Source: an uncultured virus (IMG/VR IMGVR_UViG_3300000115_000010)
Taxonomy: Duplodnaviria > Heunggongvirae > Uroviricota > Caudoviricetes
Reading direction: 5' to 3' (one strand)
DNA: 20,000 nt
Virus record (IMG/VR): IMGVR_UViG_3300000115_000010
Coordinates: 58,041 to 78,040 of that record
Positions 1-18,267 of this stretch are shown here, piece after piece. Below the pieces are notes generated by a model that made no database searches, was not told the origin of the DNA, and saw nothing but the letters and a program-made list of their open reading frames with translations. Position numbers and translations under genes: made by a program. The number at the start of each line of letters is the position of its first letter. The first letter of the stretch is position 1.

Positions 1-249
1 CGTAGTTGTGATGTTGATATGATGCGTGATACATTCCATAGTATTGTAGACGGAGAGTACGCAGAGTTGTTATTTAAACTATTCGGTAAAGAACGTGTAG
101 AAGCAGAACTAGAAGAGTTCCTCAAGTTTGACTTCTTCCAAAGAGTAGGCGGCGGAATTGGTATTACACGTATGATACCTGCACTAGAAAAAATAAATGC
201 ACTGAGTGAGCCAATGGGTATGATTCAACCCATGCTTCGTTCAGCATAA
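1..249 (+). CDS. C-terminal part of an AsnA-like / class IIb aminoacyl-tRNA synthetase catalytic-domain protein (5' truncated by the window edge)
   Basis: Frame 1 is open from base 1 (RSCDVDMMRDTF...) to TAA 247-249. It contains FFQRVGGGIGITRM, matching class II aaRS motif 3 (AsnA GGGIGxSR; Asp/AsnRS GxGxGxER). A tRNA-Asn follows directly. Confidence 0.7.
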   Translation, partial: RSCDVDMMRDTFHSIVDGEYAELLFKLFGKERVEAELEEFLKFDFFQRVGGGIGITRMIPALEKINALSEPMGMIQPMLRSA

Positions 250-256
250 AGTTTAT

Positions 257-357
257 TCCAGGGTGGAGAAATTGGTAGACTCGCACGACTGTTTATCGTG
301 TGATAGATGTTCCGCAAAATATTTATCGTGTAGGTTCGAGTCCTACCCCTGGAGCCA
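257..357 (+). tRNA. tRNA-Asn(GTT), atypical class II structure with long variable arm, encoded CCA
   Basis: Acceptor TCCAGGG(257-263)/CCCTGGA(347-353), G73 and CCA(355-357). D arm GAG-AAATTGGTAGA-CTC. Anticodon stem CACGA/TCGTG with loop CTGTTTA (GTT 291-293). Variable stem 302-311/318-327. T arm GTAGG-TTCGAGT-CCTAC. Confidence 0.92.
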
Positions 358-363
358 ATAAAA

Positions 364-408
364 TATGACCTACAGATCATAAAACTATAATATGGTCTAT
401 AGGTCATA
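364..408. repeat. Imperfect 18-bp inverted repeat (hairpin) just downstream of the tRNA
   Basis: TATGACCTACAGATCATA (364-381), a 9-nt loop, then TATGGTCTATAGGTCATA (391-408): 16 Watson-Crick pairs, one G-U and one mismatch. Confidence 0.8.
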
Positions 409-418
409 AATATGTGTA

Positions 419-1015
419 ATGAATTACATTGAAAAATTAGAACAATCAGATATATTTCGTTATATAAAAGACAAAAAAGTACTAGAAATTGGTACTGCAG
501 AAGGTTACTATTGGAATCTTTACAAAAAATATAATCCTTTAAATATAACCGGATTAGATCCAGATGATAGATGGAGTCTGACAGATGGTGTAAAAAGAGA
601 GAATATAATAAAATACGGCTGGGAAAAATATTTGCCAGTAACTGGCTATGACGTTATTATTGCATATGGTGTAATATACAAGTTAAGCAGTCCATTACAT
701 TTTTTAGAAACATTAGTCAGGTCTGAGCCACAAGTTATAATGATCGAACAAGTAGATCGTTGGGGCCAACCAGGTATTTCAAAATATCAGTCTATTAGAG
801 ATGGACGACGGGGAGATATTATCTATAGTGATAGGTATAATAGTAAAATTCATATGCATGCACCGGAAGATTTAATTGTAAAAGCAATGAATAATATGAA
901 TTATGAATTAGTTCAAAAAGAAGTTATCAGGGCAACTGATGATGATGAGTTTTGGATGATTAGAGGCAAAAAAAGCACAAAACAATTTACATTTTTAAAT
1001 AAAAATAATATATAA
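419..1015 (+). CDS. Class I SAM-dependent methyltransferase
   Basis: Motif I KKVLEIGTAEG, acidic residue after beta2 (ITGLDPD), and YDVIIAYGVIYKL..P..FLE post-II pattern. Confidence 0.8.
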   Translation: MNYIEKLEQSDIFRYIKDKKVLEIGTAEGYYWNLYKKYNPLNITGLDPDDRWSLTDGVKRENIIKYGWEKYLPVTGYDVIIAYGVIYKLSSPLHFLETLVRSEPQVIMIEQVDRWGQPGISKYQSIRDGRRGDIIYSDRYNSKIHMHAPEDLIVKAMNNMNYELVQKEVIRATDDDEFWMIRGKKSTKQFTFLNKNNI

Positions 1016-1033
1016 AAACACTGGAAACAAAAC

Positions 1034-1062
1034 TTGACAATACCCTCGATTGTTGCTATTAT
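1034..1062 (+). promoter_or_regulatory. sigma70-type early promoter
   Basis: TTGACA(1034-1039)-N17-TATTAT(1057-1062) with extended -10 TG. Confidence 0.8.
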
Positions 1063-1089
1063 AGGTAGATAAACAATTGAGGGTTATTC

Positions 1090-2070
1090 ATGACATATAT
1101 TCTAGTAGACACAGCAAACATGTTTTTTCGTGCAAGGCATGTAGTACGTGGAGATGATATTGATACCAAAATTGGTATGGCATATCACATTATGTTTGCA
1201 AGTATTTTAAAAGCATATAGAGACTTTAACGGCAGTCATGTTGTATTCTGTTTAGAAGGACGCAGTTGGCGTAAAGACTTTTATGAGCCTTACAAAGCTA
1301 ATCGCAAAGTAGCTCGTGATGCACTTACTCCTAAGGAAGAGGAAGAAGATAAGGCATATTGGGAAGCATTTGACAATCTTAAAGAGTTTATGGAAACTCG
1401 AACAAATTGCACAGTACTGCAACACAAACAATGTGAAGCTGATGACTTTATTGCACGTTGGATACAGAATCATCCTGATGATGAACATGTTATTATTAGT
1501 AGCGATAGTGACTTTTATCAGTTACTCACAGACAAAGTAACACAGTACAATGGAATTAGTAATCAGCATATTAAAATAGATGGTATTGTAAACGACAAAG
1601 GCAAGCCTGTAATTGACAAGAAAACTAAAGAGCAAAAACAAATTGGTGATCCTAGTTGGTTGCTGTTTGAAAAGTGTATGAGAGGCGATAGCAGTGATAA
1701 CGTGTTTAGTGCTTTTCCAGGTGTTCGTAAAAAAGGTACAAAAAACAAAGTTGGTCTACTTGAGGCATTTGCTGATAAAGATGCAAAAGGCTTTGACTGG
1801 AACAATATGATGCTACAACGTTGGGTGGATCATAATGGTGATGAACATCGAGTACTAGATGATTATCTACGCAATGTAACACTAGTCGATCTCACACAAC
1901 AGCCTGATGATATTAAAGTAGCATTGGATGATGTCATTACTTCACAAGTACAAGCTACTCCAGTTAGTGGTGTAGGTATTCATTTTATGCGGTTTTGTGG
2001 AACATATGATTTACAACGTATCAGCGATAACTCTCAAGCACATGCAGAATATTTAAATGCAGCCTACTGA
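1090..2070 (+). CDS. rnh: T4 RNase H-like 5'-3' exonuclease (FEN/PIN fold)
   Basis: N-terminal ILVD, SWRKDFYEPYKANRK, EADDFIA, IISSDSDFYQL and GDSSDNV.SAFPG motifs of the 5'-3' exonuclease/T4 RNase H family. Confidence 0.9.
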   Translation: MTYILVDTANMFFRARHVVRGDDIDTKIGMAYHIMFASILKAYRDFNGSHVVFCLEGRSWRKDFYEPYKANRKVARDALTPKEEEEDKAYWEAFDNLKEFMETRTNCTVLQHKQCEADDFIARWIQNHPDDEHVIISSDSDFYQLLTDKVTQYNGISNQHIKIDGIVNDKGKPVIDKKTKEQKQIGDPSWLLFEKCMRGDSSDNVFSAFPGVRKKGTKNKVGLLEAFADKDAKGFDWNNMMLQRWVDHNGDEHRVLDDYLRNVTLVDLTQQPDDIKVALDDVITSQVQATPVSGVGIHFMRFCGTYDLQRISDNSQAHAEYLNAAY

Positions 2071-2566
2071 TACGTATAAATATAATGCGAAGAGTGTTAT
2101 AGAAGATAGTTTCTGGATTGTAGAAAATCGTGGTAATCGAGTTGGAACAATTAGAAAAAATTTAGATAGCTATACGTTTTATAATACTTTAGAAAAGACA
2201 GAAACGTTAGTGGATATCAAAGACTTTAATATTACAACTGTTACTACAAAGACTACAAGTAACAATCAATCAGTATTAGGGTTTCCAACTAACCAGGATA
2301 TAGTGTATAACGGTCAGCTACTAGATAATGTGCCTGCTTACACAAAGACACCCAAAAGCAACACATATTTTGTGGCTGGGTATTGGGCATTATTATTTGC
2401 TACAGGATGGAGGCCGAGCTTTTGTCCAAGACATAAAACACAGCAAGGTTACACTAGCTTAGGACCATTTAAAAACGAAGCTGACATGCATCTTGCTATA
2501 AAAAGACAAGGATCGGATTATGAAACTCTTACTAGCAGGGGCAATAGCACTACTACCAGTTATTAG
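2057..2566 (+). CDS. Hypothetical phage protein
   Basis: 169-aa ORF overlapping the rnh stop and collinear with its neighbours; no motif recognised. Confidence 0.75.
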   Translation: MQPTDTYKYNAKSVIEDSFWIVENRGNRVGTIRKNLDSYTFYNTLEKTETLVDIKDFNITTVTTKTTSNNQSVLGFPTNQDIVYNGQLLDNVPAYTKTPKSNTYFVAGYWALLFATGWRPSFCPRHKTQQGYTSLGPFKNEADMHLAIKRQGSDYETLTSRGNSTTTSY

Positions 2567-2900
2567 TGTTGCACAAGAAAACCCCAAAGCTCTAAAATCG
2601 CCAACTGCAAGAACATTTTTTGCTACACATGCATGTGACAATGTCATGACAATGACAGATCTAGTAGTGGGAAAATACAGAGAACAACCATTATTTAAAG
2701 CAATGGGTCTGCAATTTTCTGCACAAGATGGAAAGGCATATGCTGGTAGTATGATGATGTTTGTTAATCAGGATACTGGCACATGGAGTTTGATCACACT
2801 ATACCCAGACGGTACTGGATGTATGGTTGCTACTGGTAGAGAGTTTGAACCTTATAATGGACCTAAAATTAATCCTTCTAAAAAGGAATATACTCCATAA
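2520..2900 (+). CDS. Hypothetical exported protein with signal peptide
   Basis: MKLLLAGAIALLPVISVA-Q looks like a Sec signal peptide; two Cys; AAGGA upstream. Confidence 0.75.
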   Translation: MKLLLAGAIALLPVISVAQENPKALKSPTARTFFATHACDNVMTMTDLVVGKYREQPLFKAMGLQFSAQDGKAYAGSMMMFVNQDTGTWSLITLYPDGTGCMVATGREFEPYNGPKINPSKKEYTP

Positions 2901-3088
2901 TGTGGACATTAGTTTTTATATACTTCTATGAAATAACACCTTATGTAGAGTTAATAAGCACCCATACCAATATGGTAGAGTGTTTCCAAGCAAGAGAAGA
3001 GTTAAGTGAATTTCATGGTATGGGAGGTGGCTATTTCAAACCAGAACAGCAAGCCATATGTATTAACATGAATGGGTCAGATATATAA
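2900..3088 (+). CDS. Small hypothetical protein
   Basis: TAATG coupling to the upstream gene; hydrophobic N-terminus and two Cys. Confidence 0.65.
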   Translation: MWTLVFIYFYEITPYVELISTHTNMVECFQAREELSEFHGMGGGYFKPEQQAICINMNGSDI

Positions 3089-4761: not shown

Positions 4762-4971
4762 ATGAAACCTAAATGGGCGGCATGTGTTGGACTTAGTAGA
4801 ATTGGTGACAGTCGTTGGCCATGGAAACAACAACGAACAGAATGTTGGAATGATATGGTGCGCCGTCCGTATCCATATTATTTAAGATTAGTACCAAATC
4901 GATGGATATGGTATACTATTCGTGGAGCAAAAGTCTGCTTTTGGAAAAGAAAAAGAAAGGATATGAAATGA
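4762..4971 (+). CDS. Small basic Trp/Arg-rich hypothetical protein
   Basis: Fills the gap exactly between neighbours and has an ATGA overlap with the next gene. Confidence 0.5.
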   Translation: MKPKWAACVGLSRIGDSRWPWKQQRTECWNDMVRRPYPYYLRLVPNRWIWYTIRGAKVCFWKRKRKDMK

Positions 4972-5375
4972 CACCTGTATTATATATTTTGATGAGAACT
5001 GATTTGGGTTCAATGAATCCTGGTAAAGCTATGGCTCAAGCCAGTCATGCTAGTAATGCATTTGTACATTCAGCAGAGCCTGGATACAATGTAGATGAAA
5101 AACTGTTTGAAGAATGGCGACAGTCAACAACACAAGGTTTTGGTACTGTGTTGGTACTTGGTGTAAATGAAGCTCAAATGAGAACCGCAGTTGATGTTGC
5201 ATCCAATTGTGGCATAGATAAGTTTCCATGTGACATTATACATGATCCAACTTACCCACTACAAGATGGCGACACCACACATTTTATTCCTGTGGACACT
5301 TGTGGTTATATATTTGGAGATAAAGATAATGTATTATTGCAATCAATATTAGGAAACTTTGAATTACACTATTGA
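4968..5375 (+). CDS. PTH2-family peptidyl-tRNA hydrolase-like protein
   Basis: YILMRTDL.SMNPGKAMAQASHA matches the PTH2 N-terminal signature (VRxDLxMxxGKxxAQxxHA); later VLVLGV and IIHD..; AAGGA RBS and ATGA overlap. Confidence 0.78.
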   Translation: MTPVLYILMRTDLGSMNPGKAMAQASHASNAFVHSAEPGYNVDEKLFEEWRQSTTQGFGTVLVLGVNEAQMRTAVDVASNCGIDKFPCDIIHDPTYPLQDGDTTHFIPVDTCGYIFGDKDNVLLQSILGNFELHY

Positions 5376-7614: not shown

Positions 7615-8298
7615 ATGAATCATATTAGATTAAAAAGCAAACTACCAAATACACATTTTGCTCCTAGCTACGACATTAGAATGGGAGACTTTCAATTTGA
7701 TAATGCTTCTGTATATGAAAATGTGCAGAATTTTTTATTAGAAAAAGAGCCTGACATACTAAAATTAGAATCAAATAATGATGCTGGTACTGGAGTAGCT
7801 GAAAATGACATTACTAGTAGATTTGGAATGTATAATGTATTCGATTTTGTAGACGAATGTGCAGATTTAACGGTATTACTTGATTGGTTGAGATGGTGTT
7901 ACTTAGAGTTTATGCGATCAGAAGACACTCCCGTAATTGAATGTGATATGGTATGCTGGTACAATGTACTTAGAAATAACAAAAATTTAAATGAACATGT
8001 TCATAGTAGTAATGAAAATAGTTACCTAAGTGGAAATATGCAATTTAGTAAATTTGAAACCAGTACATATTATAGAGCTCCTCTTGATCCGTTTAATGGT
8101 GTAAACATAATGGGTCCGCCAGGAAAACTGGTAATATTTCCTAGTTATGTTCCTCATGGTGTTAAAACACAATGGCAAGGAGAACGCATAAGTTTAGCAT
8201 TTGATTTATATTATTCACATTCAAATACCCAACCAGATTGGGGGAACAGTTTAAGATTTATGGATCAAGACATTTTAAAAAGGTTGACAAGTAAGTAA
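7615..8298 (+). CDS. Putative 2OG-Fe(II) oxygenase (TIGR02466-like)
   Basis: WYNV..EHVH...YLSG, PGKLVIFPSYVPHGV and ERISLAFD motifs. Confidence 0.8.
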   Translation: MNHIRLKSKLPNTHFAPSYDIRMGDFQFDNASVYENVQNFLLEKEPDILKLESNNDAGTGVAENDITSRFGMYNVFDFVDECADLTVLLDWLRWCYLEFMRSEDTPVIECDMVCWYNVLRNNKNLNEHVHSSNENSYLSGNMQFSKFETSTYYRAPLDPFNGVNIMGPPGKLVIFPSYVPHGVKTQWQGERISLAFDLYYSHSNTQPDWGNSLRFMDQDILKRLTSK

Positions 8299-11078: not shown

Positions 11079-11400
11079 GAGAGACAGAAACTTTCAAAAT
11101 ATTGTTCGTGATTTAAGTATTAGTAGTGTTCCAGCAGATTACATTCAATCGCTTAGTCTGATAACTATAGATGGAGATAAGATCACATTTCAAGGAGAAG
11201 ATATTAGTTTAAATATTGAATCTGATAATCAAACTGACGTAGTTAGTCTTCTAATTGCTATGGTTGAAGAAAATGGTGATATTTCAGATGAAATAGCAGA
11301 TGTTGAAATTATTATTGATTATAAAAAACTTGAAACCGATATTGCAGATCTTACCAATAAATTATTAAAGGCAAATAAAAATGACAGTAAAACTAGTTAG
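11065..11400 (+). CDS. Acidic hypothetical protein
   Basis: Overlaps both neighbours; ATG 11065 (alternative TTG 11062). Confidence 0.7.
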   Translation: MPVHKRDRNFQNIVRDLSISSVPADYIQSLSLITIDGDKITFQGEDISLNIESDNQTDVVSLLIAMVEENGDISDEIADVEIIIDYKKLETDIADLTNKLLKANKNDSKTS

Positions 11401-12046
11401 CTATTCAAAAGCTACAGACGACTTTGCAGCAGAAGGGCTATCAGATCTCCAAGAGCTTATTGCATTTTGTGCAAAAGTATCAAACCCTTCGGCGCAGATT
11501 AATACTGAAACAAGTGAACGACTGATTAGATATCTAATTAAACACCAACATTGGTCACCATTAGAGATGGTTAATGCTACACTTGAAATTAATACTACCA
11601 GAGATATTGCACACCAAATTGTACGTCATCGTAGTTTTGCATTTCAAGAGTTTAGTCAACGATATGCGAATCCTGCAGAGTTTGGTGAAATGTTTGTCAC
11701 CAGAGAAGCACGTCTGCAAGATACAAAGAACAGGCAAAATAGTGTAGAGATCGACAGTGACGAAGATATACATTATGCTTGGGCTAGTAAACAACAAGAA
11801 GTAATTGATAAAGCTCGAGAAGTATATGACTGGGCGATCAATGCCGGTATTGCAAAAGAACAGGCAAGGGTTGTGCTTCCCGAAGGTAATACCAAGACAA
11901 GATTATATATGAATGGAACCATTCGCAGTTGGGTACATTATATTGACTTACGTGGCGCCAATGGCACACAAAAAGAACATATGGACATTGCTCATGCCTG
12001 CGCCAAAGTTATTGCTGATATCTTTCCGCTTATGAACGAACTATAA
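11381..12046 (+). CDS. thyX: FAD-dependent thymidylate synthase
   Basis: HWSPLE, the ThyX motif RHRSFAFQEFSQRY, AKEQARVVLP and TQKEH. Confidence 0.96.
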   Translation: MTVKLVSYSKATDDFAAEGLSDLQELIAFCAKVSNPSAQINTETSERLIRYLIKHQHWSPLEMVNATLEINTTRDIAHQIVRHRSFAFQEFSQRYANPAEFGEMFVTREARLQDTKNRQNSVEIDSDEDIHYAWASKQQEVIDKAREVYDWAINAGIAKEQARVVLPEGNTKTRLYMNGTIRSWVHYIDLRGANGTQKEHMDIAHACAKVIADIFPLMNEL

Positions 12047-12638: not shown

Positions 12639-13362
12639 CACTGCAATACGCACACCAGTATTACCAGAAGTAAAAGATACAATAAAACATATACCAATAG
12701 ACTACGACGGTGTTGTAAAATACAACACCAATATTTGTGAGTGGCTCAAGCCAGTAATTGATCTCAGTAATTATCATGTGTATCCAAGAAATGGTATTAC
12801 GGAAGGGTTAGACTGGTGGTACAACCAAGAATCCAGAAGTGTATACATGGATAACGGCGATTACCAATGGATAAATCCTAGAGGTAATATGTACGATGAA
12901 AGTGTAAAGTACCAAAGCATACCCAGTAGTATTGACGGAAACTGGAGAGCAACTACAGGCGAAATACTTGACCTTGCATATGTTGGCAGTACAAGTATAC
13001 AAAAGATTGATCACGATGCAGATATAGTTTTTTACAGTTTGAGCAAAAGTTTTGGTGTACGCAACATCAGAACTGGATGGATATTTACACGTATGCCAGA
13101 TGCGAGACTAGAAGCACTTACTCACAGTGCAAAATATTACAACTACTATGCTCACAGTGTTGCAGAAAATATTATAAGTAACTATGACATAGACTATGTT
13201 CACAGAAGATTACACAGTCAACAAGTAGATGTATGCAAGAAACTTGATATTATAGCCAGTGACAGTGTGTGGCTTGCTACCAGCACACATGATGATTATA
13301 GTAAATTTAGACGTAACGGAAATGTAGCAAGAGTCTGTTTAGCAGGAGTATATGAATTATGA
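12613..13362 (+). CDS. Compact fold-type I PLP-dependent enzyme (aminotransferase class I/II-like)
   Basis: NGITEGL, ILDLAY (PLP Asp), YSLSKSFG...RTGW (Schiff-base Lys) and C-terminal ARVC. Confidence 0.75.
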   Translation: MKEAILNLSTAIRTPVLPEVKDTIKHIPIDYDGVVKYNTNICEWLKPVIDLSNYHVYPRNGITEGLDWWYNQESRSVYMDNGDYQWINPRGNMYDESVKYQSIPSSIDGNWRATTGEILDLAYVGSTSIQKIDHDADIVFYSLSKSFGVRNIRTGWIFTRMPDARLEALTHSAKYYNYYAHSVAENIISNYDIDYVHRRLHSQQVDVCKKLDIIASDSVWLATSTHDDYSKFRRNGNVARVCLAGVYEL

Positions 13363-13970
13363 AAAAACACCAATTGCCAAGTATGGCTAATTTAAACTTA
13401 GATATTGATTTAAATAAATTGCAAGGAGAAATGATTAGACTTGCTGAAAAGTTTGTAGATGTACGCACTGCGAATCCAATGTTGTGTGATAATCACATGG
13501 AACTTGTTGATAGTGTATACGATAACTTTGAACAAATTAATCTAACAACACCTAGTGAAATACTACCTTACGAAGCAAGTATTAAAGAACGTATCAGGCG
13601 CAGAGAAGAACACTTATACAATATTCCTACACCAGAATACAAAGGCAGTTACTTTGAAGAAATAGTAACACAACTTAAAGCACCTGCAAGTCGTGTGCGT
13701 ATTACAAAACTAGCACCAGGAAAAACTATTCCGTTTCACGTAGACTATGATGTGAACTATGCTGTTAGATGCATTGTTCCTATTTACGGAGACAAGAATG
13801 TTGTTAATTTGTTTAGGCGTGACAGGGAATTAGAAGCATATAATTTAGAAAACGGCAATGCATATTTTCTAAACATAGGATATCCACATGCTGTTGTTAA
13901 CATGAGTAAACATGCTAGAATTGCGCTGATGTTTAGTTTGGATGGTACAGGTGATCTGGAAACTCTGTGA
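13359..13970 (+). CDS. AspH-like (Asp/Asn beta-hydroxylase family) 2OG-Fe(II) oxygenase
   Basis: RVRITKLAPGKTIPFHVD, FLNIGYPHAVVN and RIALMF motifs. Confidence 0.85.
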   Translation: MKKHQLPSMANLNLDIDLNKLQGEMIRLAEKFVDVRTANPMLCDNHMELVDSVYDNFEQINLTTPSEILPYEASIKERIRRREEHLYNIPTPEYKGSYFEEIVTQLKAPASRVRITKLAPGKTIPFHVDYDVNYAVRCIVPIYGDKNVVNLFRRDRELEAYNLENGNAYFLNIGYPHAVVNMSKHARIALMFSLDGTGDLETL

Positions 13971-16843: not shown

Positions 16844-17309
16844 ATTGTGGGACATATATCGTAGGTGTACTCGCAGTGAAGATTACTATAATTTAAACGT
16901 AGCAAGTACCACAAATGTTTTTATTGACAATCCTGAGGATTGTGAGTATATAGAACAAAATATTGTTGAGCCATTAGGTATTGATGTACAGTGGTTAAAC
17001 AATCAATATGACGACAGTGTAGGATATAACTTTAATGTTGTCAAGCCCACAGGCTTTGTAAAGCCTCACAGAGACGTAAACAGTACTAAAGTAAATATTT
17101 TATTAAACCAAAAAACACTTGCACCATTTTTGTTTGTGGAAACACAACAAAGATACTATTACGAACACCCAGTATTACTGGATGTGAGTCAACTACACAC
17201 TGTTGATAATTGTGCTAGCATAACTAAAGATAGAGTAACACTGCAATTATTTTTAACAAAACCATATGATGAATGTGAAAGGATGATAAATGAAAATAGA
17301 AGATATTAA
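16806..17309 (+). CDS. AspH-like 2OG-Fe(II) oxygenase
   Basis: VVKPTGFVKPHRD, KVNILL, LLDVSQLHTV and DRVTLQL motifs. Confidence 0.78.
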   Translation: MIKSYDLYTNKNKLWDIYRRCTRSEDYYNLNVASTTNVFIDNPEDCEYIEQNIVEPLGIDVQWLNNQYDDSVGYNFNVVKPTGFVKPHRDVNSTKVNILLNQKTLAPFLFVETQQRYYYEHPVLLDVSQLHTVDNCASITKDRVTLQLFLTKPYDECERMINENRRY

Positions 17310-18267
17310 AAGTAGTAGCGGATATACCGTAGCTGCAAGAGTACTAACACCATATAAAGATATGAAGGAACAAGACTTTATTGATCTTGTACGTGAGTAT
17401 GGTACTGTGGTATGGAAAAAAGACACAGCTACAGTAGACGAATACATTGATTTTCAGATGCGAGTAGGTTATCATCAAGCAGCAGAAATCTGGTGTAATG
17501 ACGACAAGTATCCACAAATTTATCGTGTTACCAATCTTAAAGTAAAAGACGAACACGAATCAGAAGGTTTGTTTGGACACGGAGAACTAGACTGGCACTG
17601 TAATATATTGTTTACACCTGATAGCGAGGAAATGGTGGGCTTACGGGCAGTTGAAATACCCAAAGGAAGTCAAACAATTATGGCCAACAGTATTCCTTTT
17701 TGGAATAATCTAAGTGAAGAAAAGCGTGAATTATATGACACACTGCATTTGAGTATCACAAATAAAATGGAAGACACGTATGAAAATCGTCTAGCACACT
17801 ATGTACTACCTACTGCAGAGCTCAAAGACTTTGACAAAAAACGTGCAAGCAGAGCTATACAAAGAAGTTTAAACTATGATCAACCTGAAGACAAATTTGC
17901 TGAGCCACGTTTTGAAAAAACGAACACTCTTAAAATGATCAGTAGACATCCACTGGGTACCAAAGGTGTATACTTTCCACATTTAAATCTAAGTTATATA
18001 TGTGACAAAGATGGAAACAAACTGGAAAACCATCGTGAAATTTATGAAGAAATTAAAGCAGAATATATTGATAGTGATCAATATCATTATGCACATGAAT
18101 GGGAAGTTGGAGACATTTGTTTTATGGAACAGCTAACAGGCGTTCATAGACGTAATAATGTATGGTTAGAAAAAGGATTAGATCCAGAAACTGCCAAACG
18201 TGAATTACAACGTACTAGCTTCTGGTACAAAACACCTTATAGACTGCACACAGAACGATGCATCTAA
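17290..18267 (+). CDS. TauD/TfdA-family 2OG-dependent dioxygenase-like protein (HxN variant)
   Basis: LVREYGTVVW, LDWHCN, HPLG, HEWEVGDICF...HRR and RELQRT follow the TauD family layout. Confidence 0.78.
   Translation: MKIEDIKSSSGYTVAARVLTPYKDMKEQDFIDLVREYGTVVWKKDTATVDEYIDFQMRVGYHQAAEIWCNDDKYPQIYRVTNLKVKDEHESEGLFGHGELDWHCNILFTPDSEEMVGLRAVEIPKGSQTIMANSIPFWNNLSEEKRELYDTLHLSITNKMEDTYENRLAHYVLPTAELKDFDKKRASRAIQRSLNYDQPEDKFAEPRFEKTNTLKMISRHPLGTKGVYFPHLNLSYICDKDGNKLENHREIYEEIKAEYIDSDQYHYAHEWEVGDICFMEQLTGVHRRNNVWLEKGLDPETAKRELQRTSFWYKTPYRLHTERCI

Follow-up and report, generated by a model that had tools for sequence, protein, structure and literature searches.

A synthetase-like gene and its tRNA neighbor

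Does the synthetase-like gene at the left edge of this marine phage sequence belong together with the unusual tRNA gene that follows it, and, if so, which task would the two share? The sequence is part of an uncultured member of the Caudoviricetes (IMG/VR record IMGVR_UViG_3300000115_000010). The whole viral record, G000, comprises 78,040 bases at a completeness of 22% as estimated by CheckV, and the window—the stretch of 20,000 nucleotides that was analyzed—is its right-hand 20 kb (G000 58041–78040). The gene ending at window position 249 is named X, and the tRNA gene behind it is referred to as the captive tRNA(GUU). The two form one two-part cassette and are co-inherited. The preferred reading of this cassette is that X and the captive tRNA function as a unit that is linked to the metabolism of pyrimidine precursors—a tentative proposal, somewhat short of probable, that draws on the comparison of genes and gene neighborhoods. 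The two parts are located as follows.

1..249, + strand: gene X, C-terminal 82 codons and stop; stand-alone class IIb aminoacyl-tRNA synthetase (aaRS) catalytic core
257..357, + strand: captive tRNA(GUU), as judged by the Rfam tRNA model and covariation

Gene X encodes a class IIb catalytic core

The complete gene X spans G000 57417–58289 (L001 877–1749), starts 623 bases left of the window, and encodes 290 aa; its stop codon is the TAA at window 247–249, and motif 3 (RVGGGIGITRM; GGGIGITRM) lies at window ~145–171. The sole Pfam match is PF00152 (tRNA-synt_2), covering residues 12–271 with an E value of 4.2e-16. An earlier reading of the window from its sequence alone (the sequence-only reading) had raised the possibility that the N-terminal OB-fold anticodon-binding domain is missing. 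Retrieval of the full gene bears this out: The domain was not found in the complete 290-residue protein, neither by Pfam nor in the AlphaFold2 model, which features one domain at a predicted local distance difference test score of 94.2. The open reading frame (ORF) upstream of X belongs to no Pfam family and, because it recurs in just two of the 80 related loci, does not represent a domain split off from X. These 80 loci were kept from a scan of IMG/VR, in which at least 597 stretches encode a relative of X.

In a Foldseek search, the X model is best matched by the catalytic domains of asparaginyl- and aspartyl-tRNA synthetases (AsnRS and AspRS; TMq 0.7–0.76), with AsnRS as the top match (3.8e-17, TMq 0.73–0.76). 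X also matches phrog_29758, a phage family of unknown function, over the full length (E 4.1e-130, residues 1–271 against profile positions 1–266 of 267). The X family is distinct and comprises 681 clusters at 50% identity, nearly all members having 270–300 aa. Its abundance in the ocean is very high, with a single search matching more than 8000 clusters at the 90% level of identity. Compared with structures, the family profile matches AsnRS of the eukaryotic/archaeal type best (2.7e-15), followed by archaeal AspRS (1e-12), EpmA (5e-6), and archaeal AsnA (3p8t, 8e-6), and it gives no match with E. coli-type AsnA. X does not reach the cut-off of asnS (TIGR00457; 33.1 versus 342.6 bits, the match being confined to residues 139–220), of archaeal AsnA (NF005055; 19.7 versus 389 bits), or of EpmA/GenX (TIGR00462; 14.7 versus 286.9 bits).

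Among 42 representatives of the X family, Q61 is conserved in 42, R256 in 41, E106 in 40, and L67 in 39, followed by E68 and R265 (37 each), R88 and R209 (35 each), and E42 (34). The family has motifs 2 and 3 of class II, including the arginines that bind ATP (R88, R265) and E106, the motif-2 region fits the class IIb pattern, and the acidic metal-binding residues are kept. E42 and Q61 align with the α-amine-binding Glu and Gln of class IIb enzymes, and L67–E68 aligns with the "LE" of "QLYLE" in AsnRS and with "KQ" in AspRS, the residue roles being taken via this alignment. In the available part of the source, which uses an alignment numbering of its own, the amide readers of AsnRS are a Glu, an Arg, and a water held by Leu, and the readers of AspRS are a Lys and an Arg (PMC7387524). 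As judged by sequence, X is AsnRS/AspRS-like with a putative Leu–Glu/Arg pocket of the AsnRS type, not AsnA-like, and it is probably AsnRS-derived and catalytic. The conserved ATP-site, acidic, amine-binding, and pocket residues let X read as a predicted adenylate former, and it looks like an active one whose substrate would be of the asparagine type and carry a free amine.

The sequence-only reading had described the protein as AsnA/AsnRS-like, and the profile comparison corrects the AsnA part of this description. That X would be an asparagine synthetase of the AsnA type (Asp + NH3 + ATP to Asn), with the tRNA-Asn serving the same supply theme, is very improbable. AsnA enzymes are likewise aaRS catalytic cores lacking anticodon domains, and weak matches to archaeal AsnA exist, as listed above for NF005055 and 3p8t. 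However, the former score is far under its cut-off, the match to AsnRS surpasses that to archaeal AsnA by nine orders of magnitude, no match to E. coli-type AsnA exists, and the pocket has, by alignment, a Leu where Asp-binding enzymes have a Lys; moreover, the fusions of X homologs to PyrD and PyrF described below would be left unexplained.

The captive tRNA combines a Leu-like body with asparagine marks

The Rfam tRNA model (RF00005) matches window 257–354 with 46 bits (gathering threshold of 29 bits, E 3.9e-07), and CCA is encoded at 355–357. The acceptor stem of 7 bp is formed by 257–263 with 347–353, starts with the pair U1–A72, and is followed by the discriminator G73 at 354. The D arm features a 3-bp D stem and a Leu-type D loop, and the T arm is standard. 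The anticodon loop CUGUUUA holds the anticodon GUU and U37, and the variable arm consists of a stem of 10 bp and a loop of 6 nt (CCGCAA) within a variable region of 29 nt. ARAGORN reported no tRNA in the window, the 78-kb record, or the loci L005, L051, L085, and L086; since this program misses long-arm tRNA, its silence is uninformative here. Rfam with the fast "gathering" filters also misses the tRNA in L001, probably because of the 29-nt variable region. With a purpose-built tRNA model, R1, the window tRNA scores 110.6 bits while being itself part of the input of R1; the next-best matches of R1 in other phages are tRNA-Leu.

Covariation was followed in 34 distinct homologous tRNAs. Of all cells, 96.4% are paired, and 20 of the 30 pairs have changed on both sides, covering all helices of the cloverleaf and the variable arm. 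None of 500 shuffles reaches the observed values, and slid controls are 39 to 63% paired. Window 257–357 is a real tRNA. With the ORF, the Rfam match, and the covariation at hand, both starting observations of the sequence-only reading are confirmed, namely a protein with RVGGGIGITRM that stops at 249 and a tRNA-Asn from 257 onward.

U1–A72, G73, and GUU are invariant in all 34 aligned tRNAs, C2–G71 is present in 28, and the D and T loops are standard and conserved. Bacterial Asn identity, according to the available part of the source, comprises the anticodon and G73, amidation by GatCAB depends on U1–A72, G73 acts as an antideterminant against LeuRS and TyrRS, and C2–G71 does so against SerRS (PMC9976931). 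Under these rules, the captive tRNA features a Leu-like body that carries all Asn-loading marks and would be shielded from LeuRS, TyrRS, and SerRS, to which long-arm tRNAs normally belong. Of the attributes of a tRNA-Asn, GUU, G73, and U1–A72 are present; the class I body is absent, and so is A37 in the window tRNA, which has U37. Among at least 120 long-arm tRNA(GUU) genes, position 37 is occupied by U in 89 cases, by A in 28, and by C in 3, hence by a pyrimidine in 92, and positions 32 and 38 vary as well. A pyrimidine at position 37 is unusual for a decoding tRNA and should weaken AAY decoding.

Among relatives, the variable arm ranges from 3 bp (e.g. GAC-GAAA-GUC) to 10 bp, and the variable region from 13 to 32 nt. 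The proposal that X reads the long variable arm, made from the sequence alone, is not supported by this comparison: Even close relatives span the full range of arm lengths, and X homologs of 45 to 60% identity occur without such a tRNA.

X and the captive tRNA are co-inherited

The stop codon of X and the start of the tRNA are separated by 7 nt on the same strand. Three of the 80 X loci from IMG/VR, having less than 110 nt downstream, were set aside, and 76 of the 77 testable loci contain the tRNA—71 as judged by a structural parser and five more (L005–L008 and L011) whose T stem contains a bulge of one base. A reverse scan for long-arm tRNA(GUU) yielded at least 120 loci, 16 of which were set aside for having less than 300 nt upstream; among the 104 testable ones, X lies upstream on the same strand in 100. 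The X-locus set and the tRNA-locus set overlap in contigs and, hence, are not independent. In addition, three cultured model cyanophages, P-SSM2, P-SSM5, and P-SSM7, encode X under the bare label "tRNA ligase," and all three of these Prochlorococcus phages feature an 85- to 86-nt tRNA-Asn directly 3′ of this gene. The suggestion that X and long-arm tRNA-Asn co-occur across phages is, by these three counts, well founded. In P-SSM2 (L003, AY939844.2), the annotated tRNA-Asn PSSM2_199 is misplaced by ~2 kb into a coding sequence, and the true tRNA directly follows PSSM2_198.

The flanks of the cassette vary, with the downstream exonuclease being present in 7 of the 80 loci and the upstream ORF in the two mentioned. 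In a quick tree with a midpoint root only, the X sequences linked to the tRNA group into what is essentially a single clade (SH-aLRT 94); L070, L096, and L101 carry the tRNA, L105 lies just outside this clade, and the nearest neighbors of the phage clade are alphaproteobacterial X sequences of the operon type. Megablast of window 1–3000 against the phage collection gave no match. The available part of Sullivan et al. 2010 lists a "tRNA ligase" in two cyanophage genomes and nothing further on the pair (PMC3037559), and a literature search, with subscription journals outside its coverage, found no paper describing the pair of X and tRNA.

The locus L005 (3381–3480), the nearest relative, combines an X that is 100% identical with a clearly different tRNA, in which compensated changes affect both the acceptor and the anticodon stem and a bulge is present in the T stem; the tRNAs of L006–L008 and L011 likewise feature the one-base T-stem bulge. 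An identical X beside a divergent tRNA implies that the tRNA evolves faster than X or recombines apart from it. Contigs from RNA libraries cover X and extend into the tRNA in its L005-type variant, which fits co-transcription, although DNA carry-over is possible and the contigs give no transcript ends. The sequence-only reading had also argued that there is no room for a separate promoter. As far as the 7-nt gap is concerned, this stands, with no promoter-like site between the X stop and the tRNA; as evidence it is weak, because the scan overall found 10 sites with 9.6 expected from shuffles.

Could the tRNA simply travel with X? X might be a metabolic enzyme that needs no tRNA and, for instance, derives a precursor of the pyrimidine ring from an Asn/Asp-type substrate; the tRNA would be a regular, though odd, translation tRNA riding on the X transcript. 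This is unlikely on present evidence, even though most of the family occurs without such a tRNA, relatives lie in a pyrimidine-gene context, and an RNA-library contig spans X into the L005-type tRNA, with the reservation on carry-over just made. The available part of the source further states that tRNA genes often mark mobile cassettes in cyanophages (PMC3037559), which would favor this explanation. Against it, the tRNA almost never occurs without X despite the varying flanks, as the reverse scan indicates, and the class IIb-type motif-2 region is retained in X together with E42 and Q61. Furthermore, X-linked tRNAs are relaxed at position 37, whereas the four long-arm tRNA-Asn genes without X (L201, L211, L214, and L219) all have A37. 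These four reside in ordinary phage tRNA arrays and indicate that class-II-shaped versions of normally short-arm tRNAs arise independently of the cassette.

Relatives of X are associated with pyrimidine genes

In species-representative genomes, 402 stretches encode X relatives, and the neighborhoods of the best 80 of these 402 were read. PyrD-, PyrE-, or PyrF-like genes occur within ~4 kb of X in 16 of these 80 genome loci. Fused homologs, which are 47 to 55% identical to X, include a DHO_dh+X fusion (P0126, 55% identical) and an X+OMPdecase fusion (P0144). The 16 loci include tight X-pyrD-pyrE-pyrF operons in Midichloriaceae and the order X-pyrF-pyrE-pyrD in a metagenome-assembled genome (MAG) of Rhodospirillaceae (L140, L112); in both loci, short phosphoribosyltransferase genes adjoin X. 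In the source phage, ~9 kb upstream of X, a 230-aa DHO_dh-like gene with the motif NISCPN and an overlapping 186-aa phosphoribosyltransferase gene lie at G000 48286–49531. The DHO_dh-like protein belongs to an abundant marine family and is 33% identical (E 9e-43) to the X-adjacent one in L140 of Midichloriaceae; the phosphoribosyltransferase is not similar to that of L140. The fusions, the operons, and the phage gene resembling dihydroorotate dehydrogenase (DHODH) suggest that the chemistry of the X family is useful to pyrimidine synthesis.

Some further observations concern these neighborhoods. The marine, phage-like MAG contigs L096 and L105 contain X, the tRNA, and a PyrD-like gene within 2 kb and are the only triple co-occurrences among the loci examined. 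In the source phage, a 266-aa ORF follows the phosphoribosyltransferase gene and completes a three-gene stretch at G000 48286–50332 (L181 8286–10332); it was considered as PyrF and discarded, having no detectable PyrF likeness. Genes for adenylosuccinate synthetase, GTP cyclohydrolase I, S-adenosylmethionine synthetase, and an ATP-binding cassette transporter are located nearby. Adjacency of X to Dus (13 of the 80 genome loci) or to phosphoenolpyruvate carboxykinase (9 of 80) was given little weight as a functional hint, since each is confined to related lineages and possibly reflects one inherited arrangement.

Five X-bearing cellular genomes (G003–G007) were examined, in which absences come from MAGs except for G006. 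GatB is present in all five, and an AsnRS over the curated cut-off was found in none of them. In G003, which has the X-pyr operon, searches with OTCace_N, CPSase_L_D3, and pyrC_multi gave no match, the dimeric dihydroorotase type lying outside this search. Within a single sampled phylum, X occurs in 2 of 151 genomes, too few to cross-tabulate X against AsnRS.

These genomes bear on an explanation in terms of translation. As the sequence-only reading proposed, X might be a minimal AsnRS that disregards the anticodon and has the captive tRNA as its only substrate, so that the phage would have Asn-tRNA for translation without relying on the host; with its altered anticodon loop and body, the tRNA might, in addition, evade host defenses that cut tRNAs. 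One paper reportedly treats phage tRNAs that escape defenses through changes of the anticodon loop. Such a private pair is possible, if doubtful, and a serious competitor of the preferred reading. X has intact catalytic residues and, by alignment, an AsnRS-type pocket, the tRNA keeps its GUU anticodon, G73, and CCA along with D and T loops of standard form, the linkage is tight in both directions, and a direct AsnRS would add the missing route to the five cellular genomes, in which GatB occurs but no AsnRS exceeds the curated cut-off. However, for a plain AsnRS the PyrD and PyrF fusions of homologs as close as 47 to 55% identity and the pyrDEF operons would make no sense, and it is the operon forms that are the closest relatives of the phage clade. 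The pyrimidine at position 37 in 92 of the at least 120 tRNAs is expected to weaken AAY decoding, and the four long-arm tRNA-Asn genes in ordinary arrays without X all keep A37. Finally, the rarity of X in the sampled phylum (2 of 151 genomes) indicates that X is no general substitute for AsnRS.

The gene neighborhoods also raise the prospect that X is not an enzyme at all. Paralogs of aaRS without an anticodon domain can be regulatory subunits, as in the case of HisZ, which shows loss of catalytic residues. X could, by analogy to HisZ for HisG, be a noncatalytic regulator that binds an amino acid or a tRNA and controls a phosphoribosyltransferase or another pyrimidine enzyme, given this precedent and the short phosphoribosyltransferase genes beside X in L140 and L112 and near X in the source phage. 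Such a role is hardly to be credited: The arginines of motifs 2 and 3 and the acidic metal-binding residues are kept family-wide, which argues for a predicted catalytic activity, and the fusions are to PyrD and PyrF, with none to a phosphoribosyltransferase.

A proposed joint role in pyrimidine-precursor supply

In the preferred reading, X and the captive tRNA would act as one unit as follows. Having lost the anticodon-binding domain, X would have to handle the acceptor end or the body of a tRNA rather than its anticodon. X would use ATP and bind an asparagine-type substrate with a free α-amine. The Leu-type scaffold of the tRNA would keep the marks of the Asn pathway—GUU and G73 for AsnRS or a nondiscriminating AspRS (ND-AspRS) and U1–A72 for GatCAB—with position 37 being free to be U, C, or A. 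X would then act on the 3′ end of the captive tRNA, either by loading Asn itself or by handling Asn placed there by host enzymes. The conserved loading marks and GUU, the relaxed position 37, and the near-absence of this tRNA without X suggest that the tRNA is kept for Asn loading and for handling by X. Judging from the fusions and operons of the family, the pair would serve the supply of a pyrimidine-ring precursor and not merely spare decoding.

Several observations weigh against this proposal. L051 has X without the tRNA, the single exception among the 77 testable loci. The tight linkage may merely reflect co-transcription in a mobile cassette, and the invariant GUU is exactly what is expected for a decoding tRNA. 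Among the 80 genome loci (the best 80 of 402), the long-arm tRNA accompanies X in only six, all of them phage-like marine contigs, and is lacking in 74; no long-arm tRNA-Asn was found with the X homologs of the huge phages LR756501 and LR756508 either. Since homologs of 45 to 60% identity are free of the tRNA, it is dispensable for the basic chemistry of the family. The complete genomes of P-SSM2 and P-SSM7 contain X and the tRNA but no DHO_dh gene, and none of the 80 phage loci has a DHODH-like gene within 2.5 kb of X. G006, a complete Saccharibacteria chromosome, features X but has no match to DHO_dh, OMPdecase, OTCace_N, CPSase_L_D3, or pyrC_multi, so that pyrimidine synthesis cannot be the sole setting of the X family.

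Going one step further, a tRNA-dependent route from asparagine to dihydroorotate via X can be drawn, a speculative extension that is quite improbable. The tRNA(GUU) would be loaded with Asn by the host ND-AspRS and GatCAB, by host AsnRS, or by X, and X would close the Asn skeleton into dihydroorotate with ATP and CO2 or bicarbonate. Asn holds five of the six atoms of the pyrimidine ring, and the synthesis of threonylcarbamoyl-AMP is a precedent for the adenylation of an N-carboxy-amino acid. The small DHODH-like enzyme and the phosphoribosyltransferase would take over afterward, and carbamoyl-phosphate synthetase, aspartate transcarbamoylase, and dihydroorotase would be bypassed. The route would explain why the tRNA keeps its loading marks but not its decoding ones, why G003 has an X-pyrD-pyrE-pyrF operon without OTCace_N, CPSase_L_D3, or pyrC_multi matches, and why GatB occurs without an AsnRS over the cut-off in all five X-bearing cellular genomes. 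It would also explain the PTH2-like gene of the window (see below) through release of an N-blocked product from the tRNA.

Surroundings of the cassette in the window

364–381 and 391–408, no strand assigned: two imperfect palindromic 18-mers right behind the tRNA, read by eye from the sequence
419..1015, + strand: methyltransferase-like ORF, 198 aa
1034..1062 (L001 2534–2562), + strand: strong sigma-70-like promoter, TTGACA and TATTAT at 17 nt, with TG
1090–2070: 5′–3′ exonuclease gene (Pfam 5_3_exonuc_N), with the promoter at 1034..1062 ahead of it

The palindromic 18-mers may be a terminator or processing hairpin or the boundary of an insertion, and similar elements lie behind the tRNA in L006 and L011. 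The methyltransferase-like ORF has borderline Pfam matches to Methyltransf_23 (1.4e-06) and Methyltransf_9 (2.4e-05), the latter being presumably the CmoB-type tRNA U34 family, and occurs in none of the 80 related loci. In the near-identical L005, the tRNA runs straight into sequence matching window ~1020–1080; the ORF is missing there and, hence, was inserted downstream of the tRNA, ahead of the next promoter, with the 18-mers bounding it on its upstream side. This promoter, at 1034..1062, marks the downstream end of the X–tRNA unit.

Further to the right, 4.5 kb from the cassette, a PTH2-type peptidyl-tRNA hydrolase-like ORF of 157 aa lies on the + strand at 4902–5375 (Pfam 1.5e-08). Its product could, as judged by the family match, release N-blocked aminoacyl groups from tRNA; no PTH2 gene was found within 2.5 kb of X in the 80 related loci. 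As judged by Pfam, ThyX thymidylate synthase, several 2-oxoglutarate–Fe(II)/TauD-type oxygenases, and two fatty-acid-desaturase-like genes are located at window 11381–12046, 7615–8298, 13359–13970, and 17290–18267. They are the typical auxiliary load of a large marine myovirus-like phage.

Comparison with known systems

Should X charge its tRNA independently of the anticodon, it would represent a minimal AsnRS that occurs naturally with a tRNA of its own, which bears on the evolution of synthetases and on the engineering of orthogonal pairs. Should the pair feed pyrimidine synthesis, it would constitute a new tRNA-dependent metabolic step and a new way of making nucleotides for phages, reduced symbionts, and giant-virus-like entities. 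Either reading is directly testable in cultured phage–host systems.

The canonical AsnRS of class IIb (Protein Data Bank (PDB) entries 2XTI/2XGT, 8TC7, 1X54, and 9SH8) shares the catalytic fold and the motifs with X and is its best match both by profile and by Foldseek. X differs by the lack of the N-terminal OB domain, forms a family of its own, and is fused to or placed beside pyrimidine enzymes. Archaeal AsnA (AS-AR, PDB 3P8T) and E. coli AsnA resemble X in being class II cores of ~290 aa that stand alone and lack a tRNA-binding domain; in contrast to them, X has an AsnRS-like pocket by alignment and an attached tRNA gene, and the similarity is far weaker than to AsnRS. Bacterial tRNA-Asn, the substrate of AsnRS or of ND-AspRS and GatCAB, has GUU, G73, and U1–A72 in common with the captive tRNA, whereas the latter features a Leu-like class II body, a 3-bp D stem, a variable arm of 3 to 10 bp, and usually U or C at position 37.

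Truncated synthetase cores without an anticodon domain perform noncanonical jobs in several systems: EpmA/GenX acts on elongation factor P, GluQRS serves the queuosine of tRNA-Asp, and HisZ regulates HisG. X is a truncated core, too, and its family profile matches EpmA structures (at the 5e-6 given above), but none of these systems is known to have a dedicated tRNA gene or a tie to pyrimidine genes. Dedicated pairs of a synthetase and a tRNA are known in PylRS–tRNAPyl and SepRS–tRNACys, and recognition by PylRS is not based on the anticodon. X resembles them as a synthetase-type enzyme that is genetically paired with an unusual tRNA; unlike these pairs, the captive tRNA carries a normal sense anticodon, so that no recoding is implied, and the X family also exists without the tRNA.

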